From Escherichia coli (lineage in GTDB: Bacteria; Pseudomonadota; Gammaproteobacteria; Enterobacterales; Enterobacteriaceae): a stretch of DNA of 64,000 nucleotides. Both the position numbers and the translations under genes were made by a program. How positions within the stretch are numbered: position 1 is the stretch's first letter; every line of letters begins with the position of its first letter. The notes under the pieces are model-generated. The model was given only the letters and a program-made list of their open reading frames with translations. It was not told where the DNA came from and ran no database searches. Location: the NCBI RefSeq assembly GCF_003018115.1, contig NZ_CP027457.1; one strand, 5' to 3'. Positions 75 to 46,325 of this stretch are shown here, piece after piece.

Positions 75-377
75 CCCGGTAAGAACAAAGCGCGTGAAAA
101 TTCCCCACGCTGAGATGGTTTACTGTTCTTCTTTTCGGTAAGCATATTTTTTATCGAAGGGATGTGAAATTAATCACAGTAGTCGAAGTTTTTTAGCAGC
201 TTAACTTACTGAAATTTAACTACTGATGATTGACTTAGCCCCTTTTTCGGCATTGACGATGTCGTCTGAAAAGGGGCTGAAAAATTTATTTTCACCAACA
301 CTTTTTTTTGCCACAACACGAAGCGGCGCTTTTTGCTATAACTTAAAAAGTAATATAATCATCTCAGGAAACTATTC

Positions 378-1051
378 ATGCGTACCACATCATTTGCGAA
401 AGTTGCAGCTTTATGCGGCTTGTTGGCTCTGTCTGGTTGTGCCTCTAAAATCACCCAGCCAGATAAATATTCTGGTTTTTTAAACAATTACTCTGATTTA
501 AAAGAAACAACCTCGGCTACAGGTAAACCGGTTTTACGTTGGGTAGACCCGAGTTTTGATCAAAGCAAATATGACAGCATCGTCTGGAACCCAATCACTT
601 ATTATCCGGTACCGAAACCTTCGACCCAGGTAGGGCAGAAAGTTCTGGATAAAATTTTGAACTATACCAACACCGAAATGAAAGAAGCGATAGCGCAGCG
701 TAAACCACTGGTTACCACCGCTGGGCCGCGTAGTCTGATTTTCCGTGGGGCCATTACCGGTGTAGATACCAGCAAAGAAGGGCTGCAATTCTATGAAGTG
801 GTTCCTGTTGCATTAGTGGTTGCGGGGACGCAAATGAAATGGCTACAGGCCACCGTACCATGGATACTCGCCTCTATTTTGAAGGTGAGCTGATTGATGC
901 AGCGACTAATAAACCGGTTATCAAAGTCGTTCGTCAGGGCGAAGGTAAAGACCTGAATAACGAAAGTACGCCAATGGCTTTCGAAAATATTAAACAAGTT
1001 ATTGATGACATGGCGACCGATGCCACCATGTTTGACGTTAACAAAAAGTAG
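378..1051 (+). pseudogene. ydcL: Lipoprotein YdcL, frameshifted (two overlapping ORFs 378..893 and 839..1051 in different frames)
   Basis: N-terminal signal peptide plus lipobox (LALSGC); both ORFs read as one protein family, joined near ...GTQMK / MATGHRTMD; the shift falls in an A-run (caaatgaaatgg) around 830-840. Confidence 0.6.
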
Positions 1052-1059
1052 TTCCAGAC

Positions 1060-1086
1060 GCGCCATCGTTAGATGGCGCTTTTTAT
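1060..1086 (+). terminator. Rho-independent terminator downstream of ydcL
   Basis: Stem gcgccatc / gatggcgc with a 4-nt loop followed by TTTTTAT. Confidence 0.55.
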
Positions 1087-1347
1087 CCGGTGCGCCGTAA
1101 AACCCCATCCTTCAGGGCGGGGATATAAGGCGCGGTTTTCCACCTGACCAGGTGTTTGCTGTTGTTCAATGTATTGGCGGATGACGGATATTGGCGCACC
1201 TCCGCAGCTACTGGCAAAATAGCCAGGACTCCACAAAACGCCTTTGTAGTAATACCTGACTGCAATATCTGGTCGATCTCGTCGCAGTAACCTACCCGAT
1301 ACGCCTTTGAGGCTGTTTACCAGACTGGATATCGCCAGTTTGGGAGG

Positions 1348-1575
1348 TTAGTTAATTAACAAATGGACGTGATCTGGTTCGCCATCCATTTCAACCAGTT
1401 CAGCTTCAAAATAAGCACATACATTTGAAAAGTAAGTGTGTAGTTTTTCTGTCGCGTCATGGTCAAAAATCTGGCGTCGGTATCTGGTGACAAAGACCAG
1501 GTGAACATGCATCAGGAAAACACAATGCCTTCCACGCCGGATATCGGTTTCTTTTTTCACAGACCAAAGTATCAT
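1348..1575 (-). pseudogene. insP: IS200/IS605-family TnpA (HUH transposase), C-terminally truncated
   Basis: 75 aa with HVHLVFVTRYRRQIF and EPDHVHLLI motifs typical of the TnpA N-terminal half; ends before the catalytic Tyr region. Confidence 0.6.
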
Positions 1576-1582
1576 TTGACCT

Positions 1583-2791
1583 GTGAAACGATTACAGGCA
1601 TTTAAATTCCAGTTAAGACCAGGTGGTCAACAGAAGTGTGAAATGAGGCGCTTCGCAGGCGCATGTCGTTTCGTTTTCAATCGTGCTCTGGCACGTCAGA
1701 ATGAGAATCATGAGGCCGGTAATAAATACATCCCTTACGGGAAAATGGCTTCCTGGCTGGTTGAGTGGAAAAATGCCACTGAAACGCAATGGCTTAAAGA
1801 TTCTCCCTCACAGCCATTGCAACAGTCACTGAAAGACCTTGAGCGGGCTTACAAAAACTTCTTCCGGAAGCGGGCTGCTTTTCCCCGATTCAAAAAGCGG
1901 GGACAGAATGATGCATTCCGCTACCCGCAGGGCGTTAAGCTCGATCAGGAAAACAGCCGTATTTTTCTGCCGAAACTGGGCTGGATGCGCTACCGGAATA
2001 GCCGTCAGGTCACGGGTGTTGTGAAAAATGTCACTGTCAGCCAGTCCTGCGGTAAGTGGTACATCAGTATTCAGACAGAAAGTGAAGTATCAACTCCGGT
2101 TCACCCTTCAGCATCAATGATCGGGCTGGATGCTGGCGTGGCTAAACTCGCCACGCTGTCAGATGGCACAGTCTTTGAGCCTGTAAACAGTTTTCAGAAA
2201 AACCAGAAGACGCTGGCGAGACTTCAGCGACAGTTAAGCCGCAAGGTCAAATTCAGCAACAACTGGCAGAAGCAGAAACGCAAAATACAGCGACTGCATT
2301 CCTGTATCGCAAATATCCGCAGGGACTACCTTCACAAAGTCACAACGGCCGTCAGCAAAAACCACGCAATGATAGTCATTGAGGATTTGAAGGTCAGCAA
2401 CATGTCAAAGTCAGCAGCGGGTACGGTCAGCCAGCCGGGGCGCAATGTCCGGGCAAAATCAGGTTTAAACCGTTCGATACTGGATCAGGGCTGGTATGAA
2501 ATGCGCCGCCAGCTTGAGTACAAGCAGCTCTGGCGTGGCGGTCAGGTGCTTGCTGTTCCGCCAGCGTATACAAGCCAGCGTTGCGCGTACTGTGGTCATA
2601 CAGCGAAAGAGAACCGCCTGTCACAAAGTAAATTCAGATGCCATGTATGTGGATATACAGCGAACGCCGATGTAAATGGCGCTCGTAACATTTTAGCGGC
2701 GGGGCACGCCGTTCTTGCCTGTGGAGAGATGGTGCAGTCAGGCCGCCCGTTGAAGCAGGAACCCACCGAAATGATTCAGGCGACAGCCTGA
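1583..2791 (+). CDS. insQ: IS609 TnpB (OrfB, RuvC-like RNA-guided nuclease family)
   Basis: 402-aa ORF from a GTG start; N-terminal AFKFQLRP motif and C-terminal Cys-rich zinc finger (CAYCGH...CHVCGY). K-12 annotation would start at the internal Met at 1643 (382 aa). Confidence 0.8.
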
Positions 2792-2830
2792 ACGTAGCAG
2801 GGATCCACGTCCTTCAGGGCGTGGAGGATG

Positions 2831-4006
2831 TCAATATCGGTTTCTGTCAGCGATTAAATTCAACACCACGTAACAAACGCCTCCGGCAATTAATCCCCAG
2901 AACGCTGAACCAATCCCGACCAGCGTTAATCCACTTGCCGTTACCAGAAATGCCACCACCGCCGCGTCGCGCTCACGCTCATTATGCAGCGCCTGATACA
3001 AACTGCCGCCAATGGTACTTAACAGCGCCAGACCTGCCAGCATCTGGATCCAACTTACGGGCAGGGCAGCCATCATCCCGGTAATGGCACTACCAAACAG
3101 ACCTGCGAGCAAATAGAAAATGCCTGCAACGGCAGCGGCCAGCCAACGTTGATCTTTATCCGGATGCGCTTCCGGGCTTTGGCAAATAGCTGCGGTGATT
3201 GCCGCAATACCGACGGAATAAACGCCGAAAGGGGAAAAAACCAGTGCCAGCAATCCAGTAAATACAATTAATGGCGAAACAGGAGCCGAATATCCGGCTG
3301 CTTTCATTGCTGCGATACCCGGTGCGTTTTGCGATGCCATCGTCACCAGAAAAAGGGGGAGTGCAACGCTCAGGCTGTGAGCAAACGAAAAATCAGGGGT
3401 AATATAAGTGGGGAGAACGGGTTTAAAGACAACATCAGTTGTGACAACGTCACCTTGCGCGATAACGATCACGATCCCAATAATCATCGCGGCAATTACC
3501 GCATAGCGCGGCGCAACGGCCTTGGTTGCCAGCCATACCAGCAACATACTTCCACACAACGTAAATTGACAGTCCAGACTGGCAAACGCCTGTAAACCAA
3601 AGCGTAATAAAATCCCGGCAAGCATTGCCGCCGCAAGCGAGTGCGGAATAATGCGCATCAGACGAGCAAAGAGTCCCGTTATGCCGCAGAGGACTATTAA
3701 CGCGTTGGTGACAATAAAAACGCCGATGGCTTCGTTAAGTGTTAGTCCCTGCAATCCGGTGACCAACAAAGCCGCGCCAGGCGTTGACCATGCGGTGAGA
3801 ACAGGTACGCGATACCATAATGTCAGAGTCAGCGTACTGACGCCCATTGCCAGCCCCAGCGCCGTCATCCAGCCAGAGATTTGTGCAGTGGAGGCTCCGG
3901 CGACAATCGCTGCTTGCCAGATTATTGCCGCTGAACTGGCGTAGCCAATTAATACCGCCAGAAACCCCGCCAGTAGCGTGGGTGGAGGAACAGAAAACAG
4001 ACGCAT
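2831..4006 (-). CDS. ydcO: BenE-family inner membrane transporter YdcO
   Basis: Highly hydrophobic multi-pass protein; start set to ATG at 4006 (MRLFSVPPPT..., 391 aa) with GAGGTG Shine-Dalgarno; the track ORF extends upstream to 4129. Confidence 0.8.
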   Translation of the reverse strand: MRLFSVPPPTLLAGFLAVLIGYASSAAIIWQAAIVAGASTAQISGWMTALGLAMGVSTLTLTLWYRVPVLTAWSTPGAALLVTGLQGLTLNEAIGVFIVTNALIVLCGITGLFARLMRIIPHSLAAAMLAGILLRFGLQAFASLDCQFTLCGSMLLVWLATKAVAPRYAVIAAMIIGIVIVIAQGDVVTTDVVFKPVLPTYITPDFSFAHSLSVALPLFLVTMASQNAPGIAAMKAAGYSAPVSPLIVFTGLLALVFSPFGVYSVGIAAITAAICQSPEAHPDKDQRWLAAAVAGIFYLLAGLFGSAITGMMAALPVSWIQMLAGLALLSTIGGSLYQALHNERERDAAVVAFLVTASGLTLVGIGSAFWGLIAGGVCYVVLNLIADRNRY

Positions 4007-25897: not shown

Positions 25898-28006
25898 ATG
25901 TCAACCGGATTACGTTTCACACTGGAAGTGGACGGCCTGCCACCGGACGCTTTTGCGGTGGTTTCCTTTCATCTCACCCAGTCACTCTCTTCACTCTTTT
26001 CCCTCGATCTCTCCCTGGTCAGCCAGCAGTTTCTCTCCCTTGAATTTGCGCAGGTGCTGGACAAAATGGCCTACCTGACAATATGGCAGGGTGATGATGT
26101 ACAGCGCCGGGTGAAAGGTGTGGTGACCTGGTTTGAACTGGGGGAGAACGACAAAAACCAGATGCTGTACAGCATGAAGGTGCACCCGCCGCTGTGGCGT
26201 GCCGGTCTGCGCCAGAACTTCCGTATCTTCCAGAACGAGGACATCAAAAGCATCCTCGGCACGATATTGCAGGAAAACGGGGTGACCGAGTGGAGTCCGC
26301 TGTTCAGTGAACCGCATCCTTCCCGTGAGTTTTGTGTCCAGTACGGTGAGACTGATTACGATTTCCTGTGCCGGATGGCGGCGGAGGAAGGCATCTTCTT
26401 TTATGAGGAGCATGCTTACAAAAGTACCGACCAGAGCCTGGTGCTGTGCGACACGGTCCGCCATCTGCCCGAATCTTTTGAAATCCCCTGGAACCCGAAC
26501 CCCCGTACCGAGGTGAGCACCCTCTGCATCAGCCAGTTTCGCTACAGCGCACAAATCCGCCCTTCTTCCGTGGTGACCAAAGACTACACCTTTAAACGCC
26601 CCGGCTGGGCAGGACGTTTTGATCAGGAAGGCCAGCACCAGGATTACCAGCGCACGCAGTATGAGGTGTATGACTACCCCGGACGTTTCAAGGGCGCCCA
26701 CGGGCAGAACTTTGCCCGCTGGCAGATGGAGGGCTGGCGAAACAATGCAGAAACCGCGCGGGGAATGAGTCGCTCGCCGGAGATATGGCCGGGACGGCGA
26801 ATTGTGCTGACGGGGCATCCGCAGGCGAACCTGAACCGGGAATGGCAGGTGGTGGCGAGCGATCTTCACGGCGAACAGCCGCAGGCGGTACCGGGACGCA
26901 GGGGTTCAGGCACCACGCTGGATAACCATTTTGCGGTAATACCGGCAGACCGGACATGGCGACCACAGCCGTTGCTGAAACCGCTGGTGGATGGCCCGCA
27001 GAGCGCCGTCGTGACGGGACCGGCAGGCGAGGAAATCTTCTGCGACGAACATGGTCGCGTGCGGGTGAAATTTAACTGGGACCGCTATAACCCGTCAAAC
27101 CAGGACAGTTCATGCTGGATCCGTGTGGCACAGGCGTGGGCAGGCACCGGCTTTGGCAACCTGGCGATACCGCGTGTGGGTCAGGAGGTGATTGTGGACT
27201 TCCTCAACGGCGATCCGGACCAGCCGATTATTATGGGGCGTACCTACCACCAGGAAAACCGCACACCCGGCAGCCTGCCGGGGACGAAGACGCAGATGAC
27301 CATTCGTTCGAAAACCTATAAGGGCAGCGGGTTTAATGAACTGAAGTTTGACGATGCGACAGGGAAAGAACAGGTCTACATCCACGCGCAGAAGAACATG
27401 AACACCGAGGTGCTGAATAACCGCACCACGGATGTGATAAACAACCATGCTGAGACCATTGGCAACAATCAGATGATTGCGGTTACCAACAATCAGATAC
27501 AGACGGTGGGCGTTAACCAGATAGAGACGGTGGGCAGTAACCAGATCATTAACGTGGGTTCTGTTCAGGTGGAAACGATTGGACTTGTTCGTGCGCTGAC
27601 CGTGGGCGTGGCGTACCAGACGACGGTAGGTGGCATTATGAACACTTCGGTGGCTCTGATGCAGTCCTCGCAGATCGGTTTGCATAAATCGTTGAGGGTC
27701 GGGCTGGGTTATGACGTCAAAGTCGGAAATAACGTTACCTTCACCGTTGGTAAAACGAAAAAGGATGATACCGGGCAGACCGCGATTTACTCCGCCGGTG
27801 AGCATCTGGAGCTCTGCTGTGGTAAGGCAAAGCTGGTGCTGACAAAGGACGGTCAAATTTTTCTCAACGGCACAAAAATTCATTTGCAGGGTAAGGAGCA
27901 GGTTAATGGTGACTCACTGTTGATTAACTGGAACTGTGCAGCCTCGAAATCCCCACCGAAGACCCCTGATGAAAAGCAGGATACGCCGGATATGAGAGAG
28001 TACTGA
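25898..28006 (+). CDS. vgrG: Type VI secretion spike protein VgrG (Rhs-element vgr gene)
   Basis: Start at ATG 25898 (MSTGLRFTLEVDG...) after GGAGG; gp27/gp5-like regions and C-terminal Val-Gly repeats (IQTVGVNQIETVGSNQIINVGSVQVETIG). Confidence 0.85.
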   Translation: MSTGLRFTLEVDGLPPDAFAVVSFHLTQSLSSLFSLDLSLVSQQFLSLEFAQVLDKMAYLTIWQGDDVQRRVKGVVTWFELGENDKNQMLYSMKVHPPLWRAGLRQNFRIFQNEDIKSILGTILQENGVTEWSPLFSEPHPSREFCVQYGETDYDFLCRMAAEEGIFFYEEHAYKSTDQSLVLCDTVRHLPESFEIPWNPNPRTEVSTLCISQFRYSAQIRPSSVVTKDYTFKRPGWAGRFDQEGQHQDYQRTQYEVYDYPGRFKGAHGQNFARWQMEGWRNNAETARGMSRSPEIWPGRRIVLTGHPQANLNREWQVVASDLHGEQPQAVPGRRGSGTTLDNHFAVIPADRTWRPQPLLKPLVDGPQSAVVTGPAGEEIFCDEHGRVRVKFNWDRYNPSNQDSSCWIRVAQAWAGTGFGNLAIPRVGQEVIVDFLNGDPDQPIIMGRTYHQENRTPGSLPGTKTQMTIRSKTYKGSGFNELKFDDATGKEQVYIHAQKNMNTEVLNNRTTDVINNHAETIGNNQMIAVTNNQIQTVGVNQIETVGSNQIINVGSVQVETIGLVRALTVGVAYQTTVGGIMNTSVALMQSSQIGLHKSLRVGLGYDVKVGNNVTFTVGKTKKDDTGQTAIYSAGEHLELCCGKAKLVLTKDGQIFLNGTKIHLQGKEQVNGDSLLINWNCAASKSPPKTPDEKQDTPDMREY

Positions 28007-28073: not shown

Positions 28074-31000
28074 ATGAGCGGAAAACCAGCGGCGCGTCAG
28101 GGAGATATGACTCAGTATGGCGGTCCCATTGTCCAGGGTTCGGCAGGTGTAAGAATTGGCGCGCCAACTGGCGTGGCGTGCTCGGTGTGTCCGGGCGGGA
28201 TGACCTCGGGCAACCCGGTGAACCCGCTGCTCGGTGCAAAAGTACAGCCCGGCGAGACGGACCTTGCGCTGCCCGGCCCGCTGCCGTTCATTCTCTCCCG
28301 CACCTACAGCAGCTACCGGACCCGGACGCCTGCACCGGTGGGCGTTTTCGGCCCCGGCTGGAAAGCGCCTTCTGATATCCGCTTACAGCTACGTGATGAC
28401 GGACTGATACTCAACGACAACGGCGGGCGGAGCATTCACTTTGAGCCGCTGCTGCCAGGGGAGGCGGTGTACAGCCGCAGCGAGTCCCTGTGGCTGGTGC
28501 GCGGTGGTAAGGCAGCACAGCCGGACGGCCATACGCTGGCACGGCTGTGGGCGTCGCTGCCGCCGGATATCCGGTTAAGCCCGCATCTTTACCTGGCGAC
28601 CAACAGCGCACAGGGGCCGTGGTGGATACTGGGGTGGTCTGAGCGGGTGCCGGGTGCTGAGGACGTACTGCCAGCGCCGCTGCCGCCGTACCGGGTGCTT
28701 ACCGGGATGGCGGACCGCTTCGGGCGGACGCTGACGTACCGGCGTGACGGACGGTGCCGGGCGTGAGTTCCGTCTGGTGCTGACCACACAGGCGCAGCGG
28801 GCGGAAGAGGCCCGGCAGCAGGCGGTCGTCGCCGGAGCAAAACGACCGGACATTCCTGATTCACTGCCGGAGAGCACAGAGTACGGCCCCGACAGGGGTA
28901 TCCGTCTTTCAGCGGTGTGGCTGATGCACGACCCGGCATACCCGGAGAATCTGCCCGGTGCGCCACTGGCGCGGTACACGTATACGGAAGCCGGTGAACT
29001 GCTGGCGGTATATGACCGCAGCAATACGCAGGTGCGTGCTTTCACGTATGACCCGCAGCACCCGGGCCGGATGGTGGCGCACCGTTACGCGGGAAGGCCG
29101 GAGATGCGCTACCGCTACGACGATACGGGGCGGGTGGTGGAGCAACTGAACCCGGCAGGGTTAAGCTACCGCTATCTTTATGAGCAGGACCGCATCACCG
29201 TCACCGACAGCCTGAACCGGCGTGAGGTGCTGCATACAGAAGGCGGGGCCGGGCTGAAGCGGGTGGTGAAAAAAGAACTGGCGGACGGCAGCGTCACGCG
29301 CAGCGGGTATGACCCGGTGGGGCGGCTTACGGCGCAGACGGACGCGGCGGGACGGCGGACAGAGTACGGTCTGAATGTGGTGTCAGTCGACATCACGGAT
29401 ATCACCACGCCGGACGGGCGGGAGACGAAATTTTACTATAACGACGGGAACCAGTTAACGGCAGTGGTGTACCCGGACGGGCTGGAGAGCAGCCGGGCAT
29501 ATGATGAGCTGGACAGGCTGGTAACGGAGACATCGCGCAGCGGGGAGACAGTACGCTACCGCTATGATGATGCGCACAGTGAATTACCGGCCACAACAAC
29601 AGATGCGACGGGCAGCACCCGGCAGATGACGTGGAGCCGCTACGGTCAGTTGCTGGCGTTCACCGACTGCTCGGGCTACCAGACCCGCTATGAATACGAC
29701 CGCTTCGGCCAGATGACGGCGGTCCACCGCGAGGAAGGCATCAGCCTTTACCGCCGCTATGACAACCGTGGCCGGTTAATCTCGGTGAAAGACGCACAGG
29801 GCCATGAAACGCGGTATGAATACAACGCCGCAGGCGACCTGACTGCCCTCATTACCCCGGACGGCAACCGGAGCGAGACACAGTACGATGCGTGGGGAAA
29901 GGCGGTCAGCACCACGCAGGGCGGGCTGACGCGCAGTATGGAATACGACCTTGCCGGACGCATCACCACGCTGACCAACGAGAACGGCAGCCGGAGTGAG
30001 TTTACCTACGATGCGCTTGACCGGCTGGTACAGCAGCGCGGCTTTGACGGGCGGACGCAACGTTACCACTATGACCTGACCGGAAAACTCACGCAGAGTG
30101 AAGATGAGGGGCTTGTCACCCTCTGGCACTACGACGAATCGGACCGCCTCACTCACCGCACGGTGAACGGCGAACCGGCAGAGCAGTGGCAGTATGATGG
30201 CCACGGCTGGCTGACAGAAATCAGCCACCTGAGCGAAGGCCATCAGGTGGCGGTGCATTACGGTTATGATGATAAGGGCCGCCTGGCCGGGGAGCGCCAG
30301 ACGGTGCATAACCCGGAGACGGGGGAACTGCTGTGGCAGCATGAGACAGAGCACGCATACAACGAACAGGGGCTGGCAAACCGCGTCACGCCGGACGGCC
30401 TGCCGCGGGTGGAGTGGCTGACCTACGGCAGCGGTTATCTTGCGGGGATGAAGCTGGGCGGGACACCTCTGGTCGAGTATACGCGGGACCGCCTGCACCG
30501 GGAAACTGCGCGCAGCTTTGGTAACGGAACGGGCAGTACAGCCGCATATGAACTGACCAGCACTTACACCCCCGCAGGCCGGTTACAGAGCCAGCACCTG
30601 AACAGCCTGATGTATGACCGTGACTACGTGTGGAATGACAACGGCGACCTGGTGCGCATCAGCGGCCCGCGACAGACGCGGGAATACGGCTACAGCGCCA
30701 CGGGCAGGCTGGAGAGCGTGCGCACCCTCGCACCGGACCTGGACATCCGCATCCCGTATGCCACCGACCCGGCGGGAAACCGGCTGCCGGACCCGGAGCT
30801 ACACCCGGACAGCACGCTCACGGCGTGGCCGGATAACCGCATCGCGGAGGATGCGCACTATGTTTACCACTATGATGAATACGGCAGGCTGACGGAGAAG
30901 ACGGACCGCATCCCGGCGGGTGTGATACGGACGGACGACGAGCGGACCCACCACTACCACTACGACAGCCAGCACCGTCTGGTGTTCTACACGCGGATAC

Positions 31001-32250
31001 AGCATGGCGAGCCGCAGGTGGAGAGCCGCTACCTCTGTGACCCGCTGGGACGGCGAATGGCGAAACGGGTATGGCGGCGGGAGCGTGACCTGACAGGATG
31101 GATGTCGCTGTCGCGTAAACCGGAGGTGACGTGGTATGGCTGGGACGGAGACAGGCTGACGACGGTACAGACAGACCAGACCCGTATCCAGACGGTCTAC
31201 CAGCCGGGGAGCTTCACGCCGCTCATCCGTATCGAGACAGAGAACGGCGAACGGGAGAAAATGCAGCGCCGCAGCCTAGCGGAGAAGTTACAGTCGGAAG
31301 GGAGTGAGGACGGTCACGGTGTGGTGTTCCCGGCTGAGCTGGTGAGGATGCTGGACAGGCTGGAGGAAGAAATCCGGGCAGGCCGCGTGAGCAGTGAAAG
31401 CCGGGCGTGGCTTGCGCAGTGCGGGCTGACGGTGGAGCAACTGGCCAGACAGGTGGAGCCGGAATACACACCGGCGCGAAAAGTTCATCTTTATCACTGC
31501 GACCACCGGGGCCTGCCGCTGGCGCTCATCAGCGAAGACGGCAATACGGCGTGGCGCGGGGAGTATGATGAATGGGGCAACCAGCTTAATGAGGAGAACC
31601 CGCATCATGTGTATCAGCCATACCGCCTGCCGGGGCAGCAGTATGATGAGGAGTCGGGGCTGTACTATAACCGCAACCGGTACTATGATCCGTTGCAGGG
31701 GAGGTATATTACCCAGGATCCGATTGGGCCAGTGGGGGGGTGGAATCCCTATAGTTATGTGCTTAATAATCCAGCCCAGTTTATTGACCCAACAGGTTTA
31801 ACTCAAGAGGACAATTGGACCTATGGTGAGGTAGGTAATAGCTGTGTTACGAGTCAACGCGATTTTACTCCCCCGCCCGGACTTGCGGATATGAAAGCCA
31901 GCATTGGCGCTGCCTGCTCAAGAAACAATGCTTCCAGAAACTGCCACCCCGTAGATGGTAGTAATGCTTCTGCACCATCGGATAAAGCCGCATGGGAAAA
32001 TATTCAAAATGCGACAAATGGTAAAGATTTATCTGGTGGTGGAAATATGTTTTGTGTAGGAAATGAGGACTGTGCGGTTGTTCATAGCTGTCGTGAAATA
32101 GTTAATGCTCGACACCCGGCAGGACGAGTGCGTGAACGTGTAACTCCGTTAACAACGTCAGGAACAGCAACGCTCAATGGAACAACAGTTTACTTTTATA
32201 ATGATCCCCGGAATGGTAATTGTCCTGCTCACGAATATATTCCTCAATAA
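28074..32250 (+). pseudogene. rhsE: PAAR-Rhs polymorphic toxin, copy 1, split by a frameshift near 28740-28766 (ORFs 28074..28766 and 28744..32250)
   Basis: N-terminal PAAR-like region, YD-repeat core, DPxGL boundary. Relative to copy 2 about 38 nt (encoding ...[12 protein letters not shown]...) is missing, shifting the frame. Symbol by K-12 position only. Confidence 0.7.
31801..32250 (+). other. Rhs copy 1 C-terminal variable toxin domain (CT1), function unknown
   Basis: About 149 aa following DPTGL at 31786..31800; drop in GC content; Cys-rich; no motif recognised. Confidence 0.6.
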
Positions 32251-32300
32251 AGAAAGGTGGCCAGACTAAGCTCTAGCCACATTTTTTGGAGATCCTTTTC

Positions 32301-32924
32301 ATGAAAAGGTTTTTTATAACATGTTGCGTTATGACATTATTTTTATTTGTTAAATGTAAAGCAGCGTGTGTAACTTCCTTATATGAGGTTCAGCAATCGC
32401 TCTTTACATACATTTATTTGATTAGACAAGACCCTGTTCATTTTGATTCATATATTAAGAATGTGCATAACGAATTAAAAATATTCCATGATATTGATAA
32501 AGCCATGAATATAGCCTCAGATATGGTCAAAATTATTGATATAAAGACCCGTTTATCATTTAATAATGATTTATATATATTACAAGGGGAGCGACAGTAT
32601 GCAATAGTTAAGAGTGAAGGGGAAAGTAGTCAATTAAAATCATCAGCATTTATCATATCTAATTACCCACCATTTAAAAACAAAGTTCTGTTAATTTTAT
32701 CCGCTACTAGTCCCGTTCAGTTGGTTATATTGTCTTTTGATCAATGTCTTAATGTGGAGGTGTTATTTGATTCAATGTCTCCAGTTTTCGCTAAGTATAG
32801 AGAAGATATTAGTGCAACATTACCATTATGGAAGGTTATTTTGACAAAAAATGATATAGAATTATATGAGTACCATAGAACAAATCCATACTCACTTAAC
32901 AAATTATTGAGCATGTCAAAATAA
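32301..32924 (+). CDS. Putative immunity protein for Rhs CT1 (signal peptide/lipoprotein-like)
   Basis: AT-rich ORF directly downstream of rhs; start at ATG 32301 (MKRFFITCCVMTLFLF...) after GGAG; hydrophobic N-terminus with Cys. Confidence 0.6.
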   Translation: MKRFFITCCVMTLFLFVKCKAACVTSLYEVQQSLFTYIYLIRQDPVHFDSYIKNVHNELKIFHDIDKAMNIASDMVKIIDIKTRLSFNNDLYILQGERQYAIVKSEGESSQLKSSAFIISNYPPFKNKVLLILSATSPVQLVILSFDQCLNVEVLFDSMSPVFAKYREDISATLPLWKVILTKNDIELYEYHRTNPYSLNKLLSMSK

Positions 32925-33121
32925 CGGTCAAGTATTCAACGTTGTAATATTATTCCTTTTGCTGAGTGTCTCGAACGGCTAAAGTTGACGTAAAATGCCA
33001 CGTTTTGTGGGCAAACCGAATCGGTTAAAAAGCATGGTCCGGGAAAAGCTAAACATCAGCGCTATCGGTGCCAAATGTGCAGCAGGCCTTTCCAGCCTGA
33101 TTACCAGGGCAGGGCGGGATC

Positions 33122-34410
33122 AGGGAAAGATCATCAGAAGTTCACTTTTTGTACTAAATAATTTGCATTTTATATTTAAAAATTGAGATATTCCTCATTA
33201 CCTGAAGCTGTTTTTTATTGCTTATACATGATCAAATACTCCTTACATAATTAAGGAGAACAAAATGGAACTTAAAAAATTGATGGAACATATTTCTATT
33301 ATCCCTGATTACAGACAAGCCTGGAAAGTGGAACATAAATTATCGGATATTCTACTGTTGACTATTTGTGCCGTTATTTCTGGTGCAGAAAGCTGGGAAG
33401 ATATAGAGGATTTTGGTGAAACACATCTCGATTTTTTGAAGCAATATGGTGATTTTGAAAATGGTATTCCTGTTCACGATACCATTGCCAGAGTTGTATC
33501 CTGTATCAGTCCTGCAAAATTTCACGAGTGCTTTATTAACTGGATGCGTGACTGCCATTCTTCAGATGATAAAGACGTCATTGCAATTGATGGAAAAACG
33601 CTCCGGCACTCTTATGACAAGAGTCGCCGCAGGGGAGCGATTCATGTCATTAGTGCGTTCTCAACAATGCACAGTCTGGTCATCGGACAGATCAGGACGG
33701 ATGAGAAATCTAATGAGATTACAGCTATCCCAGAACTTCTTAACATGCTGGATATTAAAGGAAAAATCATCACAACTGATGCGATGGGTTGCCAGAAAGA
33801 TATTGCAGAGAAGATACAAAAACAGGGAGGTGATTATTTATTCGCGGTAAAAGGAAACCAGGGGCGGCTAAATAAAGCCTTTGAGGAAAAATTTCCGCTG
33901 AAAGAATTAAATAATCCAGAGAATGACAGTTACGCAATTAGTGAAAAGAGTCACGGCAGAGAAGAAATCCGTCTTCATATTGTTTGCGATGTCCCTGATG
34001 AACTTATTGATTTCACGTTTGAATGGAAAGGGCTAAAGAAATTATGCGTGGCAGTCTCCTTTCGGTCCATAATAGCAGAACAAAAGAAAGAGCCAGAAAT
34101 GACGGTCAGATATTATATCAGTTCTGTTGATTTAACCGCAGAGAAGTTCGCCACAGCAATCCGAAACCACTGGCACGTGGAGAATAAGCTGCACTGGCGT
34201 CTGGACGTGGTAATGAATGAAGACGACTGCAAAATAAGAAGAGGAAATGCAGCAGAATTATTTTCAGGGATACGGCACATCGCTATTAATATTTTGACTA
34301 ATGATAAGGTATTCAAGGCAGGGTTAAGACGTAAGATGCGAAAAGCAGCCATGGACAGAAACTATCTGGCGTCAGTCCTTGCGGGGAGCGGGCTTTCGTA
34401 ATCTTGCCCT
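33122..34410 (+). mobile_element. H-repeat (H-rpt, ISAs1-family) element, copy 1
   Basis: About 1.29 kb unit bounded by imperfect inverted repeats AGGGAAAGAT ... ATCTTGCCCT; three near-identical copies in the window. Confidence 0.8.
33265..34401 (+). CDS. ISAs1-family transposase (H repeat-associated protein), copy 1
   Basis: 378-aa [31 protein letters not shown]...; DDE-type transposase family. Confidence 0.85.
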
Positions 34411-35114
34411 GGGGCAACCTGCTTAATGAGGAGAACCCACATCACCTGTATCAGCCATACCGCCTGCCGGGGCAGCAGCATGATGAGGAGTCAGGGCTTT
34501 ATTATAACCGTCACCGGTACTATGACCCGCTACAGGGGAGGTATATCACCCAGGATCCAATCGGGCTAAGAGGTGAATGGAATCTGTATAAATATCCATT
34601 AAACCCTGTTCGGTTTATAGATTCTTTGGGTTTAAAATTCCATGTTAACGGTGATCCAAGTGATTTTAATCAGGCTGTTGAGTATTTAAAACAAGATTCA
34701 CGAATGAAAGAAGCTATAGATTTTTTATCAAGCTCTGAAGAAACCATAAAGATAGAGTATATTGATGAAACCGACGTTAGATTTGACCTGGATAAAATGA
34801 CTATATATTGGAATAGTAAGGCGGCTTTATTTTGTTCAACTGATTTAAAATCGAAATCACAATCACCTGCATTAGGTTTGGGGCATGAGTTTGCTCATGC
34901 GCACTTATATCTTATTGATAAGGATGGTTATATGGGGCTTGTGAGACGTGCGGATGAACAATATAAAAATAAAGAAGAGGCGAGAGTTATCACTTTAATT
35001 GAACAGCATGCGGCGAAAACTTTAGGTGAGTGTACCAGAACAGCATATAATGGAGTGTATTATCGTGTGAATACACCAACGCAGACGGCAACAATAAATG
35101 GCACGCCAGAATAG
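34404..35114 (+). CDS. Orphan Rhs C-terminal fragment with HExxH (zincin-like metallopeptidase) toxin domain (orphan CT-a)
   Basis: Begins at the H-rpt right end with the rhs core 3' end ([18 protein letters not shown]...DPIGL...[13 protein letters not shown]), then a divergent domain containing [10 protein letters not shown]; probably lacks its own start codon. Confidence 0.65.
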
Positions 35115-35575
35115 TGAGATTTTTCATGATGAAATATTTGATGGCTTTATTGTCTCTATTTTCTGCTTCGGTATTGGGGATGGGGCGAGTGAATGATTTA
35201 TGTGGAATAGATAGTGTGAAAACGATAGAAATAATTAATCTTCCAGCATATGTTACCACCTTAACCCCGCTTAGCAAGGAAGGTCTCAAGAGAATATACA
35301 AACATAAAGTGGTGGTGAATGGGGTTAGCGATTTTTATGCTGGTGAGATAATTGATCTATTGCAAATGAAGTATTTCAGGAAGGAGGAGGATAACGATAT
35401 AAGATGGGGGGTTAACATTGTTTCGAATAAAAATAATAAATGTGAAATTTATTTTGATGGTTTTGGTGAATGTGGAAGCGTGAATGGCATTAATGTATGT
35501 TTTGAAAAAAATGAAATGATATATTGGATTAAAAAAGAAATCCCTTTTCTGTCGCAAGAAATAGATGGGCTTTAA
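35114..35575 (+). CDS. Putative secreted immunity protein for orphan CT-a
   Basis: ORF overlapping the toxin stop; likely start at ATG about 35126 (MMKYLMALLSLFSASVLG..., signal peptide); AT-rich. Confidence 0.6.
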   Translation: MRFFMMKYLMALLSLFSASVLGMGRVNDLCGIDSVKTIEIINLPAYVTTLTPLSKEGLKRIYKHKVVVNGVSDFYAGEIIDLLQMKYFRKEEDNDIRWGVNIVSNKNNKCEIYFDGFGECGSVNGINVCFEKNEMIYWIKKEIPFLSQEIDGL

Positions 35576-35651
35576 ATGGTAGGGCAATATTCAAAGACAG
35601 TATAGGTAACTATTTGTATGGACATGTAAGGTAAAAGAAAAGGAATAAACC

Positions 35652-38600
35652 ATGAGCGGAAAACCGGCGGCGCGGCAGGGCGACATGACCCGCAAGGGAC
35701 TGGATATTGTGCAGGGTTCAGCGGGTGTGCTGATAGGTGCGCCGACGGGAGTGGCCTGTTCGGTGTGTCCGGGAGGGATTACCTATGCTAACCCGGTGAA
35801 CCCGGTGCTGGGTGCGAAGGTGCTGCCGGGCGAGACGGACCTTGCGCTGCCCTGCCCGCTGCCGTTTATTCTTTTCCGCGCCTACAGCAGCTACCGGACC
35901 AGAACACCCGCGCCGGTGGGGGTGTTTGGTCCCGGCTGGAAAGCGCCCTTCGATATCCGCTTACAGATACGCGATGAAGGCCTGATACTCAACGACAGCG
36001 GCGGCAGGAGCATTCACTTTGAGCCGCTGTTTCCCGGCGAGATAAGCTACAGCCGCAGCGAGTCACTCTGGCTGGCGCGGGGCGGAGTAGCGGCGCAGCA
36101 CAGTTCGCAGCCGCTAAGCGCGCTCTGGCAGGTGCTGCCGGAAGATGTTCGCCTGAGTCCGCATGTGTACCTGGCGACAAACAGCCTTCAGGGGCCGTGG
36201 TGGATACTCAGCTGGCCGGAGCGGGTGCCGGGGGCGGACGAGGTGCTGCCGCCGGAGCCGCCCGCATACCGGGTGCTGACGGGCGTGGTGGACGGCTTCG
36301 GGCGGACGCTGGCCTTTCACCGGGCAGCGGAGGGTGACGTGGCGGGCGCGGTGACGGGGGTGACGGACGGCGCGGGCCGCCGTTTTCACCTGGTGCTGAC
36401 CACACAGGCGCAGCGGGCGGAAGAGGCCCGTAAACCGCACACCGCTTCGTTATCTTCCCCTGACAGTCCCCGCCCTCTCTCAGCTCCTTCCTTCCCCGAC
36501 ACGCTGCCCGCCGGTACAGAGTACGGTGCCGATAACGGTATCCGGCTGGAGGCGGTATGGCTGACACACGACCCGGCATACCCGGATGAACAGCCGACTG
36601 CGCCGCTGGCGCGCTACACGTACACGGCCGGTGGTGAACTGCGGGCGGTGTATGACCGCAGCGGGACGCAGGTGCGCGGGTTTACTTATGATGCGGAGCA
36701 CGCCGGGCGGATGGTGGCGCACCATTATGCGGGTAGGCCGGAGAGCCGCTACCGGTATGATGATACCGGTCGGGTGACGGAGCAGGTCAACCCGGAGGGG
36801 CTGGACTACCGCTTTGAGTACGGAGAGAGCCGGGTAATCATCACGGACAGCCTGAACCGGCGGGAGGTGCTGTACACGGAAGGCGAGGGTGGCCTGAAGC
36901 GGGTGGTGAAGAAGGAGCATGCCGACGGGAGCATCACCCGCAGCGAGTATGATGAGGCGGGGAGGCTGAAGGCGCAGACGGATGCGGCGGGGCGGCGGAC
37001 GGAGTACCGGCTGCATATGGCGTCTGGAAAGCTGACTTCAGTGGTACTGCCGGACGGCAGGACGGTACGGTATGGTTACAACAACCAGTTGCAACTGACG
37101 TCAGTGACATATCCGGATGGTTTACGCAGCAGCCGGAAATATGACCGTCAGGGCAGGCTGGCGGAAGAGACCTCGCGCAACGGTAACATTACGCGCTGGT
37201 TTTATGATTCTTCCCGCAGTGGCCTGCCCTGTGCGGTGGAAGACGGAACCGGGGTGAGGCGGAGAATAACGCGAAACCGGTACGGTCAGCTTCAGGCGTT
37301 TACGGACTGCTCGGGGTACACGACGCGGTATGAGTATGACCGGTACGGTCAACAAATCGCCGTTCACCGGGAAGAAGGCATCAGCACTTACAGCAGTTAT
37401 AACCCGCGCGGTCAACTGGTCAGTCAGAGGGATGCGCAGGGGCGTGAAACCCGTTATGAGTACAGCGCCGCAGGAGACCTGACAGCAACGGTATCACCGG
37501 ACGGTAAACGCAGCACCATCGCATATGATAAACGCGGGCGTCCGGTGAGTGTGACGGAAGGCGGTCTGACGCGCAGCATGGGGTATGACGCTGCCGGGCG
37601 CATCACCGTGCTGACCAACGAGAACGGCAGCCAGTCCACGTTCCGGTATGACCCGGTTGACAGGCTGACTGAACAGCGCGGTTTTGACGGCCGGACGCAA
37701 CGTTACCACTATGACCTGACCGGAAAACTCACACAGAGTGAAGACGAGGGGCTTATCACCCTCTGGCACTACGATGCGTCGGACCGCATCACGCACCGGA
37801 CGGTGAACGGCGACCCGGCAGAGCAGTGGCAGTATGATGAGCACGGGTGGTTAACCACCCTCAGCCATACCAGTGAAGGCCACCGCGTGTCGGTCCACTA
37901 CGGCTATGACGATAAAGGCCGCCTGACCAGTGAGCGCCAGACGGTGGAGAACCCGGAGACGGAGGAACTGCTGTGGCAGCATGAGACAGAGCACGCATAC
38001 AACGAGCAGGGGCTGGCAAACCGCGTCACGCCGGACAGCCTGCCGCCGGTGGAGTGGCTGACGTATGGCAGCGGCTATCTGGCGGGCATGAAGCTGGGCG
38101 GGACGCCGCTGCTGGAGTTCACGCGCGACCGCCTGCACCGTGAGACGGTGCGCAGCTTCGGCAGCAGGGCAGGCAGTAATGCCGCATATGAACTGACCAG
38201 CACATACACCCCCGCAGGCCAGTTACAGAGTCAGCACCTGAACAGCCTGGTATATGACCGTGACTACGGGTGGAATGACAACGGCGACCTGGTGCGCATC
38301 AGCGGCCCGCGACAGACGCGGGAATACGGCTACAGTGCCACGGGCAGGCTGGAGAGCGTGCGCACCCTCGCACCGGACCTGGACATCCGCATCCCGTATG
38401 CCACGGACCCGGCGGGCAACCGGCTGCCGGACCCGGAGCTGCACCCGGACAGTACCCTCACAGTGTGGCCGGATAACCGCATCGCGAAGGATGCGCACTA
38501 TGTTTACCACTACGATGAATACGGCAGACTGACGGAGAAGACGGACCGCATCCCGGCGGGTGTGATACGGACGGACGACGAGCGGACCCATCACTACCAT

Positions 38601-39845
38601 TACGACAGCCTGCACCGCCTGGTCCATTACATCCGTATCCAATATGAGGAGCCACTGGTGGAGAGCCGCTACCTCTATGATCCGCTGGGCCGCCGGACGG
38701 GTAAACGGGTGTGGCGGCGGGAGCGTGACCTGACGGGGTGGATGTCGCTGTCGCGTAAACCGGAGATGACATGGTACGGCTGGGACGGAGACCGCCTGAC
38801 GACGGTACAGACAGACACCACGCGAATCCAGACGGTCTACCTGCCGGGGAGCTTCACGCCGCTCATCCGCATCGAAACGGAGAACGGCGAACGGGAGAAA
38901 GCGCAGCGTCGCAGTCTGGCGGAGAAGTTACAGTCGGAAGGGAGTGAGGACGGTCACGGTGTGGTGTTCCCGCCTGAACTGGTGATGATGCTGGACAGGC
39001 TGGAGGGAGAGATACGGGCAGACCGCGTGAGCCGTGAAAGTCGCCAGTGGCTGGCGCAGTGCGGACTGACGGTGGAGCAACTGGCCAGACAGGTGGAGCC
39101 GGAATACACACCGGCGCGAAAAGTTCATCTCTATCACTGCGACCACCGTGGCCTGCCGCTGGCGCTCATCAGCGAAGACGGCAATATAGCGTGGAACGCG
39201 GAGTATGATGAGTGGGGCAACATGCTGAACGAGGAGAACCCGCATCACCTGTATCAGCCATACCGCCTTCCGGGTCAGCAGTACGATGAGGAGTCGGGGC
39301 TGTACTATAACCGGAACCGGTACTATGATCCGTTGCAGGGGAGGTATATCACCCAGGACCCGATAGGGCTGATGGGGGGATGGAACCCTTACCTTTATCC
39401 GTTAAATCCTGTCACAAATACTGACCCTCAGGGGTTAGAAGCGATTCTTCCTGGTCCGTTCCCCTTCCCAATTCCATTGCCAAAAAGTCCTGTACAGCAG
39501 GAAGCAGATGCAAATGCAGCAAAAACATTGACAAAATGGTGGAAAAACTTTGGAGATGCCATTAATAATCCGCCACCTCCTGGTAATTGTTCTAATGATT
39601 ATTATGAACATCTGAAAAATCAAAAAGAAGCTATTTGCAACCAAAAAAGAAAGTGTTACCCAACCGATAGTTGTGAAACTATACTTCAGAAAGGTGTGTA
39701 TGGTCTTGCTTGTGTATCAGCAAGGAATAATATTATGAATCAATGTTTTAATGGAGGTGATTTACGGCATCAGCTTGAAAGAGAAACGGTCAGGGGAACT
39801 ATGATGTCATGTACTACATTGGCTGTAATAAAAGGATGTTTATAA
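35652..39845 (+). CDS. Intact PAAR-Rhs polymorphic toxin, copy 2 (1397 aa)
   Basis: AAGGA Shine-Dalgarno; N-terminal PAAR-like region (CSVCPGG), YD repeats, conserved ...PxxxxDPxGL boundary (DPQGL at 39423..39437), variable C-terminus. Confidence 0.9.
39438..39845 (+). other. Rhs copy 2 C-terminal toxin domain (CT2), Cys-rich, function unknown
   Basis: About 135 aa after DPQGL; Pro-rich linker then Cys-rich segment (CSNDYYEHL...[14 protein letters not shown]...CVSARNN...C); AT-rich. Confidence 0.6.
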
Positions 39846-45479: not shown

Positions 45480-46325
45480 ATGACGCCCATTCTGAATCAC
45501 TATTTTGCCCGTATTAACTGGTCGGGAGCTGCTGCGGTCAATATTGATACGCTTCGTGCATTGCACCTGAAACACAATTGCACCATTCCGTTTGAAAACC
45601 TCGACGTTTTGCTGCCGAGGGAAATGCAGCTTGATGATCAATCGCTGGAAGAGAAACTGGTGATAGCCCGTCGTGGCGGTTACTGTTTTGAGCAGAATGG
45701 CGTGTTTGAGCGGGTGTTACGCGAGCTGGGGTTTAACGTTCGCAGCTTGTTAGGGCGTGTAGTGTTATCAAATCCGCCAGCATTACCGCCGCGCACCCAT
45801 CGTTTGCTGTTGGTGGAACTGGAAGAGGAAAAATGGATTTCTGATGTCGGTTTCGGTGGGCAGACGCTAACCGCGCCGATTCGTTTAGTTCCCGATCTCG
45901 TGCAGACCACGCCACACGGAGAGTATCGGTTGTTGCAGGAGGGTGATGATTGGGTGTTGCAGTTTAATCATCATCAGCACTGGCAGTCGATGTACCGTTT
46001 TGATCTCTGCGAGCAGCAACAAAGCGATTATGTGATGGGCAATTTCTGGTCGGCGCACTGGCCACAGTCGCATTTTCGCCATCATTTGCTGATGTGCCGC
46101 CATTTGCCGGACGGCGGCAAGCTGACACTGACCAATTTTCATTTTACCCATTATGAAAATGGGCACGCGGTGGAGCAGCGAAATCTACCGGATGTGGCGT
46201 CGTTATATGCCGTGATGCAGGAACAGTTTGGTCTGGGCGTGGATGATGCGAAACATGGCTTTACCGTGGATGAGTTAGCGCTGGTGATGGCAGCGTTTGA
46301 TACGCACCCGGAGGCGGGAAAATAA
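45480..46325 (+). CDS. nhoA: Arylamine N-acetyltransferase NhoA
   Basis: 281-aa ORF with NAT-family catalytic Cys context (RRGGYCFEQN). Confidence 0.85.
   Translation: MTPILNHYFARINWSGAAAVNIDTLRALHLKHNCTIPFENLDVLLPREMQLDDQSLEEKLVIARRGGYCFEQNGVFERVLRELGFNVRSLLGRVVLSNPPALPPRTHRLLLVELEEEKWISDVGFGGQTLTAPIRLVPDLVQTTPHGEYRLLQEGDDWVLQFNHHQHWQSMYRFDLCEQQQSDYVMGNFWSAHWPQSHFRHHLLMCRHLPDGGKLTLTNFHFTHYENGHAVEQRNLPDVASLYAVMQEQFGLGVDDAKHGFTVDELALVMAAFDTHPEAGK

Follow-up and report, generated by a model that had tools for sequence, protein, structure and literature searches.

The stretch of DNA analyzed here (herein the window) comprises 64,000 nucleotides (nt) of an Escherichia coli genome (contig NZ_CP027457.1, assembly GCF_003018115.1), and the element in question is a pair of tandem rhs genes whose cores (rhs core 1, 28052 through 31800; rhs core 2, 35633 through 39440; both, like the other parts of the element given below, on the plus strand) form a direct repeat. 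The surrounding gene order, pqqU-yncE-ansP-yncG-yncH-vgrG-rhs on the left and H-rpt-pptA-yddH-nhoA on the right, is syntenic with K-12 rhsE and with many annotated genomes. Based on these flanks and this gene order, the locus is assigned to the E. coli RhsE site, a known “rearrangement hot spot”, here with two neighboring rhs toxin-delivery genes of different lineages; at the same site K-12 has an rhsE remnant (3′ only), ydcD, yncI, and ydcC. Comparisons were made against 5426 complete E. coli genomes, a set that does not contain the window's own sequence. Its nearest relatives in this set are five O169:H41-type enterotoxigenic E. coli (ETEC) genomes, with 99.8% identity over window positions 1 through 20000. 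The colinear alignment of the window with one of them (L001) gives 98.6% identity, and the gene order from 29131 through 48000 is the same in all five genomes, which are complete and were assembled independently.

Core 1 lies directly downstream of vgrG, a type VI secretion system (T6SS) spike gene (25862 through 28006; 714 amino acids [aa]; Pfam Phage_GPD, Gp5_trimer_C, and Phage_base_V; NCBIfam TIGR03361, 625.7 bits). Self-alignment, identity to rhsD, and the NCBIfam RHS_core model NF041261 define core 1 as an RhsD/E-type pseudogene, split between open reading frames (ORFs) 28074 through 28766 and 28744 through 32250. Core 2, defined by self-alignment, NF041261, and the informative sites described below, is part of an intact gene (35652 through 39845; 1397 aa). 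Core 2 scores 2604.9 bits against NF041261 (positions 1 through 1261; cut-off 2000) and belongs to this family; the match of core 1 is divided by a frameshift into positions 1 through 226 (491 bits) and 237 through 1261 (2136.8 bits). RHS/YD repeats and DUF6531 are also matched in the rhs genes. Both cores are GC-rich (G+C of 63.1% for core 1 and 62.8% for core 2) and are followed by AT-rich tips (37 to 46%), the homology between the two genes stopping at about 31800/39440. The boundary motif DPxG-(18)-DPxG(L) is present in both, as DPIG...DPTGL in core 1 and DPIG...DPQGL in core 2. Beyond it lie the C-terminal extension of core 1 (CT1, 31800 through 32250; 45.5% G+C) and that of core 2 (CT2, 39440 through 39845; 37.7% G+C), the latter with an Ntox16 toxin domain (Pfam PF15523, E = 6.2e-11).

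The original prediction described the two rhs cores as a kilobase-scale direct repeat, and comparison of the window with itself by blastn bears this out: 28052 through 31751 aligns with 35633 through 39391 in the same orientation, 7.6 kb apart (3779 columns, 79.5% identity, 99 gap positions, E = 0). In a global MAFFT alignment, which extends to about 31800/39440, identity is 79.9% over 3742 ungapped columns. The cores are thus no near-identical segmental duplication, with high-90s identity over kilobases, and to call them highly similar was an overstatement. The substitutions described as scattered are real but are not evenly spread: 200-nt windows range from 56% (29389 through 29589) to 96.5% (30589 through 30789) identity, and codon-aligned identity is 70.6% over 28855 through 30120 and 89.3% over 30121 through 31761. 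The observation is therefore confirmed in part, as a genuine repeat that is 80% identical and bimodal. Six gaps interrupt the alignment; two stretches present in core 2 are missing from core 1, one of 38 nt (between 28737 and 28738) and one of 25 nt (at 28818), a single nt at 28844 is found only in core 1, and the last three, of 3 nt each, fall at the ends. The first of these is the indel that had been placed near 28740; that it is a frameshifting deletion specific to this sequence had not been remarked on.

The two cores were placed among their homologs using an alignment (herein A2) of twelve cores that starts at about nt 780 and extends to their ends. Core 1 has 92.0% identity with K-12 rhsD, 89.4% with the rhsE remnant of K-12, and 77.0% with rhsA; for other first-position cores at the locus and the rhsE remnant taken together, the range is 89 to 92.5%. 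Core 1 groups with rhsD/rhsE, not with rhsA, and so belongs to the RhsD-E subfamily. For core 2, the corresponding values are 81.2% (rhsD) and 72.5% (rhsA). Up to A2 column ∼1273 core 2 is, in 150-column windows, 93 to 99% identical to the second core of 90-3040 at the same locus and 83 to 99% identical to the second core of PCN033 at the RhsG locus, and only 58 to 80% identical to D/E-type cores. Beyond that column it is 81 to 100% identical to D/E-type cores, with the second core of 90-3040 staying divergent, and over columns 1724 through 2323 it is 99 to 100% identical to the first core of 90-3040. As informative sites we took the positions at which the second core of 90-3040 departs from the D/E consensus. 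Before ∼37760, core 2 sides with this second lineage (labeled H-type here) at 341 of 348 sites and with D at 7; after it, core 2 sides with D/E at 200 of 236 sites and with H at 36 (best breakpoint, Fisher p = 2e-107). The synonymous divergence (Ks) between core 1 and core 2 is 0.8 to 1.3 in the 5′ part and 0.31 to 0.37 in the 3′ part, and the ratio of nonsynonymous to synonymous divergence (Ka/Ks) is 0.14 to 0.28 throughout. Because Ks differs at similar Ka/Ks, the two identity levels reflect different ancestry rather than different constraint. On the evidence of these alignments, core 2 is a chimera, apparently H-type over its 5′ 2.1 kb (to ∼37760) and D/E-type over its 3′ 1.6 kb (from ∼37770).

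The 38-nt deletion in core 1 (site 28728 through 28747) was defined by alignment with its closest intact homologs, VREC0864, 55989, and OkiPb01676, all three of which have the 38 nt. In the intact genes, a 10-nt direct repeat (ACCGGCGTGA) opens the segment that is missing from the window and also opens the retained sequence; one copy is left in core 1 of the window, and the intact homologs have it on both sides. Such a pattern is the signature expected of a (slipped-strand) deletion between short direct repeats. Since 38 is not a multiple of 3, the deletion shifts the reading frame, and putting the 38 nt back joins ORFs 28074 through 28766 and 28744 through 32250 in one frame. As NF041261 is matched on both sides of the interruption, core 1 has no other lesion. 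In the five ETEC relatives, window positions 26608 through 29131 (2.5 kb) are deleted, which fuses mid-vgrG to core 1; the overlap of the alignment blocks and the junction sequences show 7 nt of microhomology at the junction (L001 6001 through 6007). This is the only deletion seen in the close relatives, and the microhomology marks it as illegitimate, not homologous. From these junctions, the vgrG-linked rhs gene appears to have lost its function through a different illegitimate deletion in each of two sister lineages.

Two further differences adjoin these lesions. The 5′ part of vgrG (25924 through 26501) holds all 32 differences from L001 in the left flank (20602 through 26608), with none in the preceding 5.3 kb, and this 580-nt cluster looks like a separate imported recombination tract. 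Just past the frameshift, a patch of the core (window 28800 through 28830; 9650 through 10010 in L003) varies in length between strains: compared with core 1, VREC0864 carries a tandem duplication of 21 nt (GCAGCAGGCGGAAGAGGCCCG), and the sequence of other cores is wholly different there.

Taken together, the locus is very probably a composite Rhs element with two paralogous tandem rhs genes, core 1 being a D/E pseudogene and core 2 an intact mosaic. The products of the rhs genes would be shell proteins with polymorphic toxins at their C termini, destined for type VI secretion, and the repeat would arise from the 3.7-kb core common to both genes rather than from a recent duplication. Core 1, beside vgrG, belongs to the RhsD/E lineage and is inactivated by the deletion between the 10-nt direct repeats. 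The 5′ 2.1 kb of core 2 would come from the H-type lineage, which also occupies the second position at the RhsE/RhsG loci of other strains, and the D/E-type 3′ 1.6 kb would have been gained through an old recombination between lineages; such a mosaic history would account for the two-level identity (∼70%, then ∼89% toward the 3′ end). The anatomy, the mosaic, the frameshift, and the replaced tract of core 1 described below are shown by the alignments. Several points weigh against this interpretation. The 38-nt deletion is known from this sequence alone, its closest relatives having lost that region, and “H-type” is a working label for a lineage, not a verified RhsG/RhsH subfamily assignment. 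The direction of the chimera is unsettled, as the second core of 90-3040, rather than core 2 of the window, could be the recombinant; counter to this, a D/E-like 3′ half is also found in the second core of PCN033, itself of the H-type. Finally, the last ∼600 nt of core 2 are best matched, among the 12 cores, by core 1 (91 to 94%), and some local gene conversion is possible.

A recent tandem duplication of one rhs gene, since diverged, would also yield direct repeats of equal length and the same orientation 7.6 kb apart, with a 3′ third that is ∼89% identical overall and up to 96.5% identical in stretches, and it would leave repeats prone to unequal crossing-over and to assembly collapse. The overall identity of 80%, however, with the 5′ 2 kb at ∼70% and Ks near 1, is far too low, and each core has closer relatives elsewhere (core 1 is 92% identical to rhsD; the 5′ part of core 2 is 93 to 99% identical to the second core of 90-3040, with that of PCN033 also closer). 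Identity and phylogenetic pattern together refute a duplication of this kind, which we regard as highly improbable. An assembly artifact is still harder to credit, be it as the source of the two-core layout or of the 38-nt deletion. Three 1.29-kb repeats of ∼98% identity and two paralogous cores are indeed hard for short-read assemblers, and the deletion is found only in this sequence; against this, the five ETEC assemblies share the order of 29131 through 48000 (98.6% identity in L001), the 5′ 2.2 kb of core 2 is 100% identical in four of the five ETEC genomes and 99.7% in the fifth, and a 38-nt deletion at a 10-nt direct repeat has the look of strand slippage rather than of a homopolymer error.

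Another possibility is that ongoing gene conversion between the adjacent cores keeps the 3′ 1.6 kb alike, so that the pair acts as an active unit moving toxin tips between genes. Over A2 columns 2324 through 2923 (core 1 ∼31100 through 31700), core 2 is closest to core 1, at 91 to 94% against 81 to 93% for the others, and the near identity of core 2 to the first core of 90-3040 over columns 1724 through 2323 hints that first and second cores have exchanged sequence in related layouts. Yet the 3′ Ks is still 0.31 to 0.37, which makes any conversion old, and core 2 is no closer to its neighbor than to an E-type core of an unrelated genome (79.6 and 80.2%, respectively, over the whole core; 80.9% to both over the A2 region). 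The recent history of core 1 argues in the same direction. Its 147 differences from the ETEC core 1 are clustered in 29430 through 31229 (82 per kb), as against 23 (2 per kb) over the 11 kb that follow (Poisson p = 3e-175); by this contrast, a 1.8-kb tract of core 1 appears to have undergone replacement after the window and the O169:H41 ETEC lineage diverged. Core 2 was rejected as donor of this tract, as it matches the window at 51 of the informative sites, ETEC at 76, and neither at 20, and core 2 itself is 99.3 to 100% identical between the window and ETEC lineages while core 1 changed. Among the 5426 genomes we identified no donor for 29430 through 31230; the best match is 96.3%. Gene conversion of this ongoing kind is therefore quite unlikely. 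With somewhat better but still poor prospects, the 3′ 1.6 kb might stay alike through recurrent exchange and serve as a landing pad for toxin tips while the double knockout of the vgrG-linked gene reflects selection to silence the first gene and keep the rare Ntox16 effector, as opposed to neutral decay; we judge these two suggestions jointly.

Between and beyond the two genes of this composite element are further components. CT1 is followed by a candidate immunity gene (32286 through 32924; 29.7% G+C), a role proposed only from its position; its product is annotated in relatives as a 197-aa hypothetical protein (WP_223718882.1), and CT1 together with this gene is 100% identical between the window and the ETEC relatives. 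An IS1 transposase gene fragment follows (32966 through 33116), annotated in the 100%-identical ETEC sequence (L001 9836 through 9986) and transferred via the colinear alignment. Three copies of H-rpt, recognized as a repeat family, lie at 33119 through 34412 (copy 1), 40583 through 41871 (copy 2), and 42915 through 44207 (copy 3, the last element before pptA); each is 1.29 kb long and has an intact 378-aa transposase ORF (33265 through 34401, 40725 through 41861, and 43060 through 44196, respectively). NF033564 (ISAs1 transposase) is matched at 415 bits against a cut-off of 70, which places H-rpt in the ISAs1 family of insertion sequences (IS). No inverted repeats of at least 60 nt were found in the 20- to 48-kb part of the window.

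Self-comparison detects four short core-end fragments (31573 through 31772, 34410 through 34609, 39213 through 39412, and 41868 through 42014), which are 83 to 86% identical, and two of these belong to orphan tips rather than to the cores. In orphan 1 (34404 through 35114), a 200-nt fragment (34410 through 34609; NF041261 positions 1187 through 1261) abuts H-rpt copy 1 and precedes a tip with the sequence HEFAH; in orphan 2 (41839 through 42486; from self-alignment), a 147-nt fragment (41868 through 42014) abuts H-rpt copy 2 and precedes a tip with no family match. Orphan 2 has the boundary motif as DPIG...DPLGL; that of orphan 1 deviates (DPIG...DSLGL). A small AT-rich ORF lies downstream of each tip, and we infer that these are putative immunity genes: besides that of CT1, there are candidates for orphan 1 (35114 through 35575) and orphan 2 (42487 through 42885; 132 aa), proposed from ORF position, and for CT2 (39846 through 40370; 174 aa), whose role is likewise read from its position. 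Searches of Pfam and NCBIfam gave no family for CT1, the orphan tips, or any putative immunity protein. The HEFAH of orphan 1 is an HExxH motif, suggesting a toxin of the zinc-metallopeptidase type. The putative immunity gene of orphan 2 has a 39-nt in-frame indel (about 42500 through 42750) between the window and the ETEC relative, the protein being 132 aa in the window, TB06051, and D8 and 119 aa in ETEC. Orphan 2 is 99.5% identical to the orphan of TB06051; the core fragment kept there is 1.4 kb long, against 147 nt in the window. The annotation lists no T6SS core genes within the examined parts of the locus; with a VgrG gene adjacent, delivery would rely on a T6SS encoded elsewhere.

Each H-rpt copy adjoins a 3′ rhs core fragment, at differing core positions. 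In core 1 coordinates, the junctions of the window fall at 31573 and 31626 and that of TB06051 (L010 16602) at about 30370, and in 2014C-3075 (L011 12710) H-rpt abuts a 1.78-kb core fragment. These varied junctions suggest IS-adjacent deletions of differing depth rather than one target site.

The cores and H-rpt copies had together been proposed as substrates for recombination that could delete or reshuffle the toxin modules between them, a proposal that the present analysis supports in part. The cores do recombine, as the chimera and the replaced tract indicate, but with each other they form a weak pair. A length of 25 nt is the minimal processing segment usually quoted for RecBCD recombination in E. 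coli. Only 14 exact runs of at least 26 nt are shared between the cores, the longest of 68 nt and all but one at 30052 through 31710, and the 5′ 2 kb (∼70% identical) is a poor substrate. The H-rpt copies are much better substrates, with 97.5 to 98.4% identity (97.8 to 98.7% in the self-comparison) and exact runs of up to 301 nt; pairs of copies have 706 to 860 matched positions above the 25-nt threshold against 274 for the cores, roughly a threefold difference. Future homologous exchange between core 1 and core 2 would accordingly be rare and confined to the 3′ third, and deletion or reshuffling of toxin modules would be likelier via the three H-rpt copies or through illegitimate events. Because the 38-nt frameshift lies upstream of the usable homology, a crossover between core 1 and core 2 would retain it; going by the coordinates, such an event would swap the only intact rhs gene for a frameshifted fusion.

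The natural record agrees with this in part. The CT1-immunity module, found in 11 of the 5426 genomes, occurs in several layouts, including a single intact core (TB06051), a second-position core (D8), and an H-rpt-truncated core (2014C-3075), which fits the idea that toxin modules are reshuffled; none of the CT1 layouts examined equals a single homologous deletion of the window layout. Deletion of modules by recombination between the cores, on the other hand, was not seen: searching the 5426 genomes through the CT1 and CT2 modules revealed no fusion or deletion product of core 1 and core 2, and no natural deletion product of two H-rpt copies was identified through the same modules. The CT2-immunity module is present in 5 of the 5426 genomes, only in O169:H41 ETEC, and always with two cores. 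As for the warning that assemblies of the region would collapse at the cores, this is unlikely at 80% identity, with five complete genomes sharing the layout from 29131; the realistic risk to short-read assembly is the H-rpt copies.

The arrangement at this locus has precedents. Wang, Zhao, and Hill are said to have described in 1998 the RhsH of ECOR-45 in tandem with RhsE, with 22 to 29% divergence between subfamilies. We take this RhsE-RhsH tandem, as a lead only, to be the arrangement found here. The name “RHS element protein dsORF-h1”, given in some genomes to the ORF at the position of the candidate immunity gene of orphan 1, just upstream of the H-type core, is consistent with such a tandem. 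The subfamilies of E. coli rhs are given as rhsABCF, rhsDE, and rhsGH (Wang et al. 1998, as cited in PMC2935791). Jackson et al. 2009 place the “position 6” rhs genes in two parts of their network, mostly alongside position 3 (rhsD) but in some cases alongside position 1, and report the two core types together at this position for E. coli SE11 and Shigella sonnei (PMC2935791). The window resembles this RhsE “position 6” in its site (yncH ... pptA), the upstream vgrG, the combination of one rhsD-like core with one of a second type, the H-rpt copies, and the AT-rich tips with small downstream ORFs; its composite layout matches the textbook description of an Rhs element (PMC2935791). Unlike the reported tandems, it has a private 38-nt frameshift in the vgrG-linked core, and its second core is chimeric and ends in an Ntox16 tip that is rare (5 of 5426 genomes); it also has H-rpt in three copies and a pair of orphan tips. 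In K-12, only the 3′ rhsE remnant is left.

The rhs cores of K-12 differ from those of the window chiefly in their homology. Within the rhsA/rhsB/rhsC subfamily, cores are nearly identical to one another. These three K-12 genes are the original “rearrangement hot spots” (Lin, Capage, and Hill 1984, as cited in PMC2935791 and PMC3967940), and the cores at positions 5 and 9 through 11 are almost identical (Jackson 2009, PMC2935791). The window has in common with rhsA/rhsB/rhsC its 3.7-kb cores in direct orientation, a portable homology for RecA-dependent rearrangement, but its cores are 80% identical with exact runs of at most 68 nt, and they are 7.6 kb apart rather than chromosomally distant. 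A similar contrast applies to the activation of orphan Rhs tips in Salmonella Typhimurium (Koskiniemi et al. 2014, PMC3967940). There, as here, a full-length rhs gene is followed by orphan core ends with alternative tips and immunity genes, and the full-length gene would acquire an orphan tip through recombination at the common end of the core; the Salmonella switch has 522 bp of homology at 95% identity (PMC3967940). The orphans of the window, unlike those of LT2, share 120 to 200 nt with the core ends at 79 to 86% identity (longest exact run 35 nt) and have H-rpt directly upstream of each; they therefore do not form an LT2-type switching cassette with several hundred base pairs of near-identity.

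The GC-rich core, the hyperconserved DPxG-(18)-DPxG boundary, the nonhomologous AT-rich tips, and the displaced tips downstream all correspond to the C-terminal displacement model of Jackson et al. 2009 (PMC2935791). In the judgment of the same study, clade I cores at different loci recombine infrequently, if at all, and E. coli clade I loci generally lack dissociated tips (PMC2935791); the window departs from both generalizations, with clearly mosaic cores and two dissociated tips. The feature is nonetheless of a familiar kind; both the locus and the tandem arrangement are known, and the pairing of two core types here has been reported before (Jackson 2009). Its chief use is corrective: in annotation and assembly, these cores should not be handled as near-identical repeats, the real risks of misassembly and rearrangement being the three H-rpt copies. 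It also adds one clear example each of a chimeric core between lineages in E. coli, of dissociated toxin tips at a clade I locus, and of decay of a vgrG-linked gene via two different lesions in sister lineages. Only the chimeric second core with its rare Ntox16 tip and the twofold inactivation of the vgrG-linked gene are mildly unusual, and none of these examples alters the current understanding of Rhs elements.

Two minor observations concern the surroundings of the locus. Among the ydc genes of the ETEC region matching window positions 1 through 20000, insQ is annotated, which encodes a TnpB of the IS200/IS605 type (RNA-guided endonuclease family). Downstream of the Rhs element, at 46250 through 47750 (yddE to narI), about 56 further differences from the ETEC relative are clustered in housekeeping genes, probably as an unrelated imported recombination tract.

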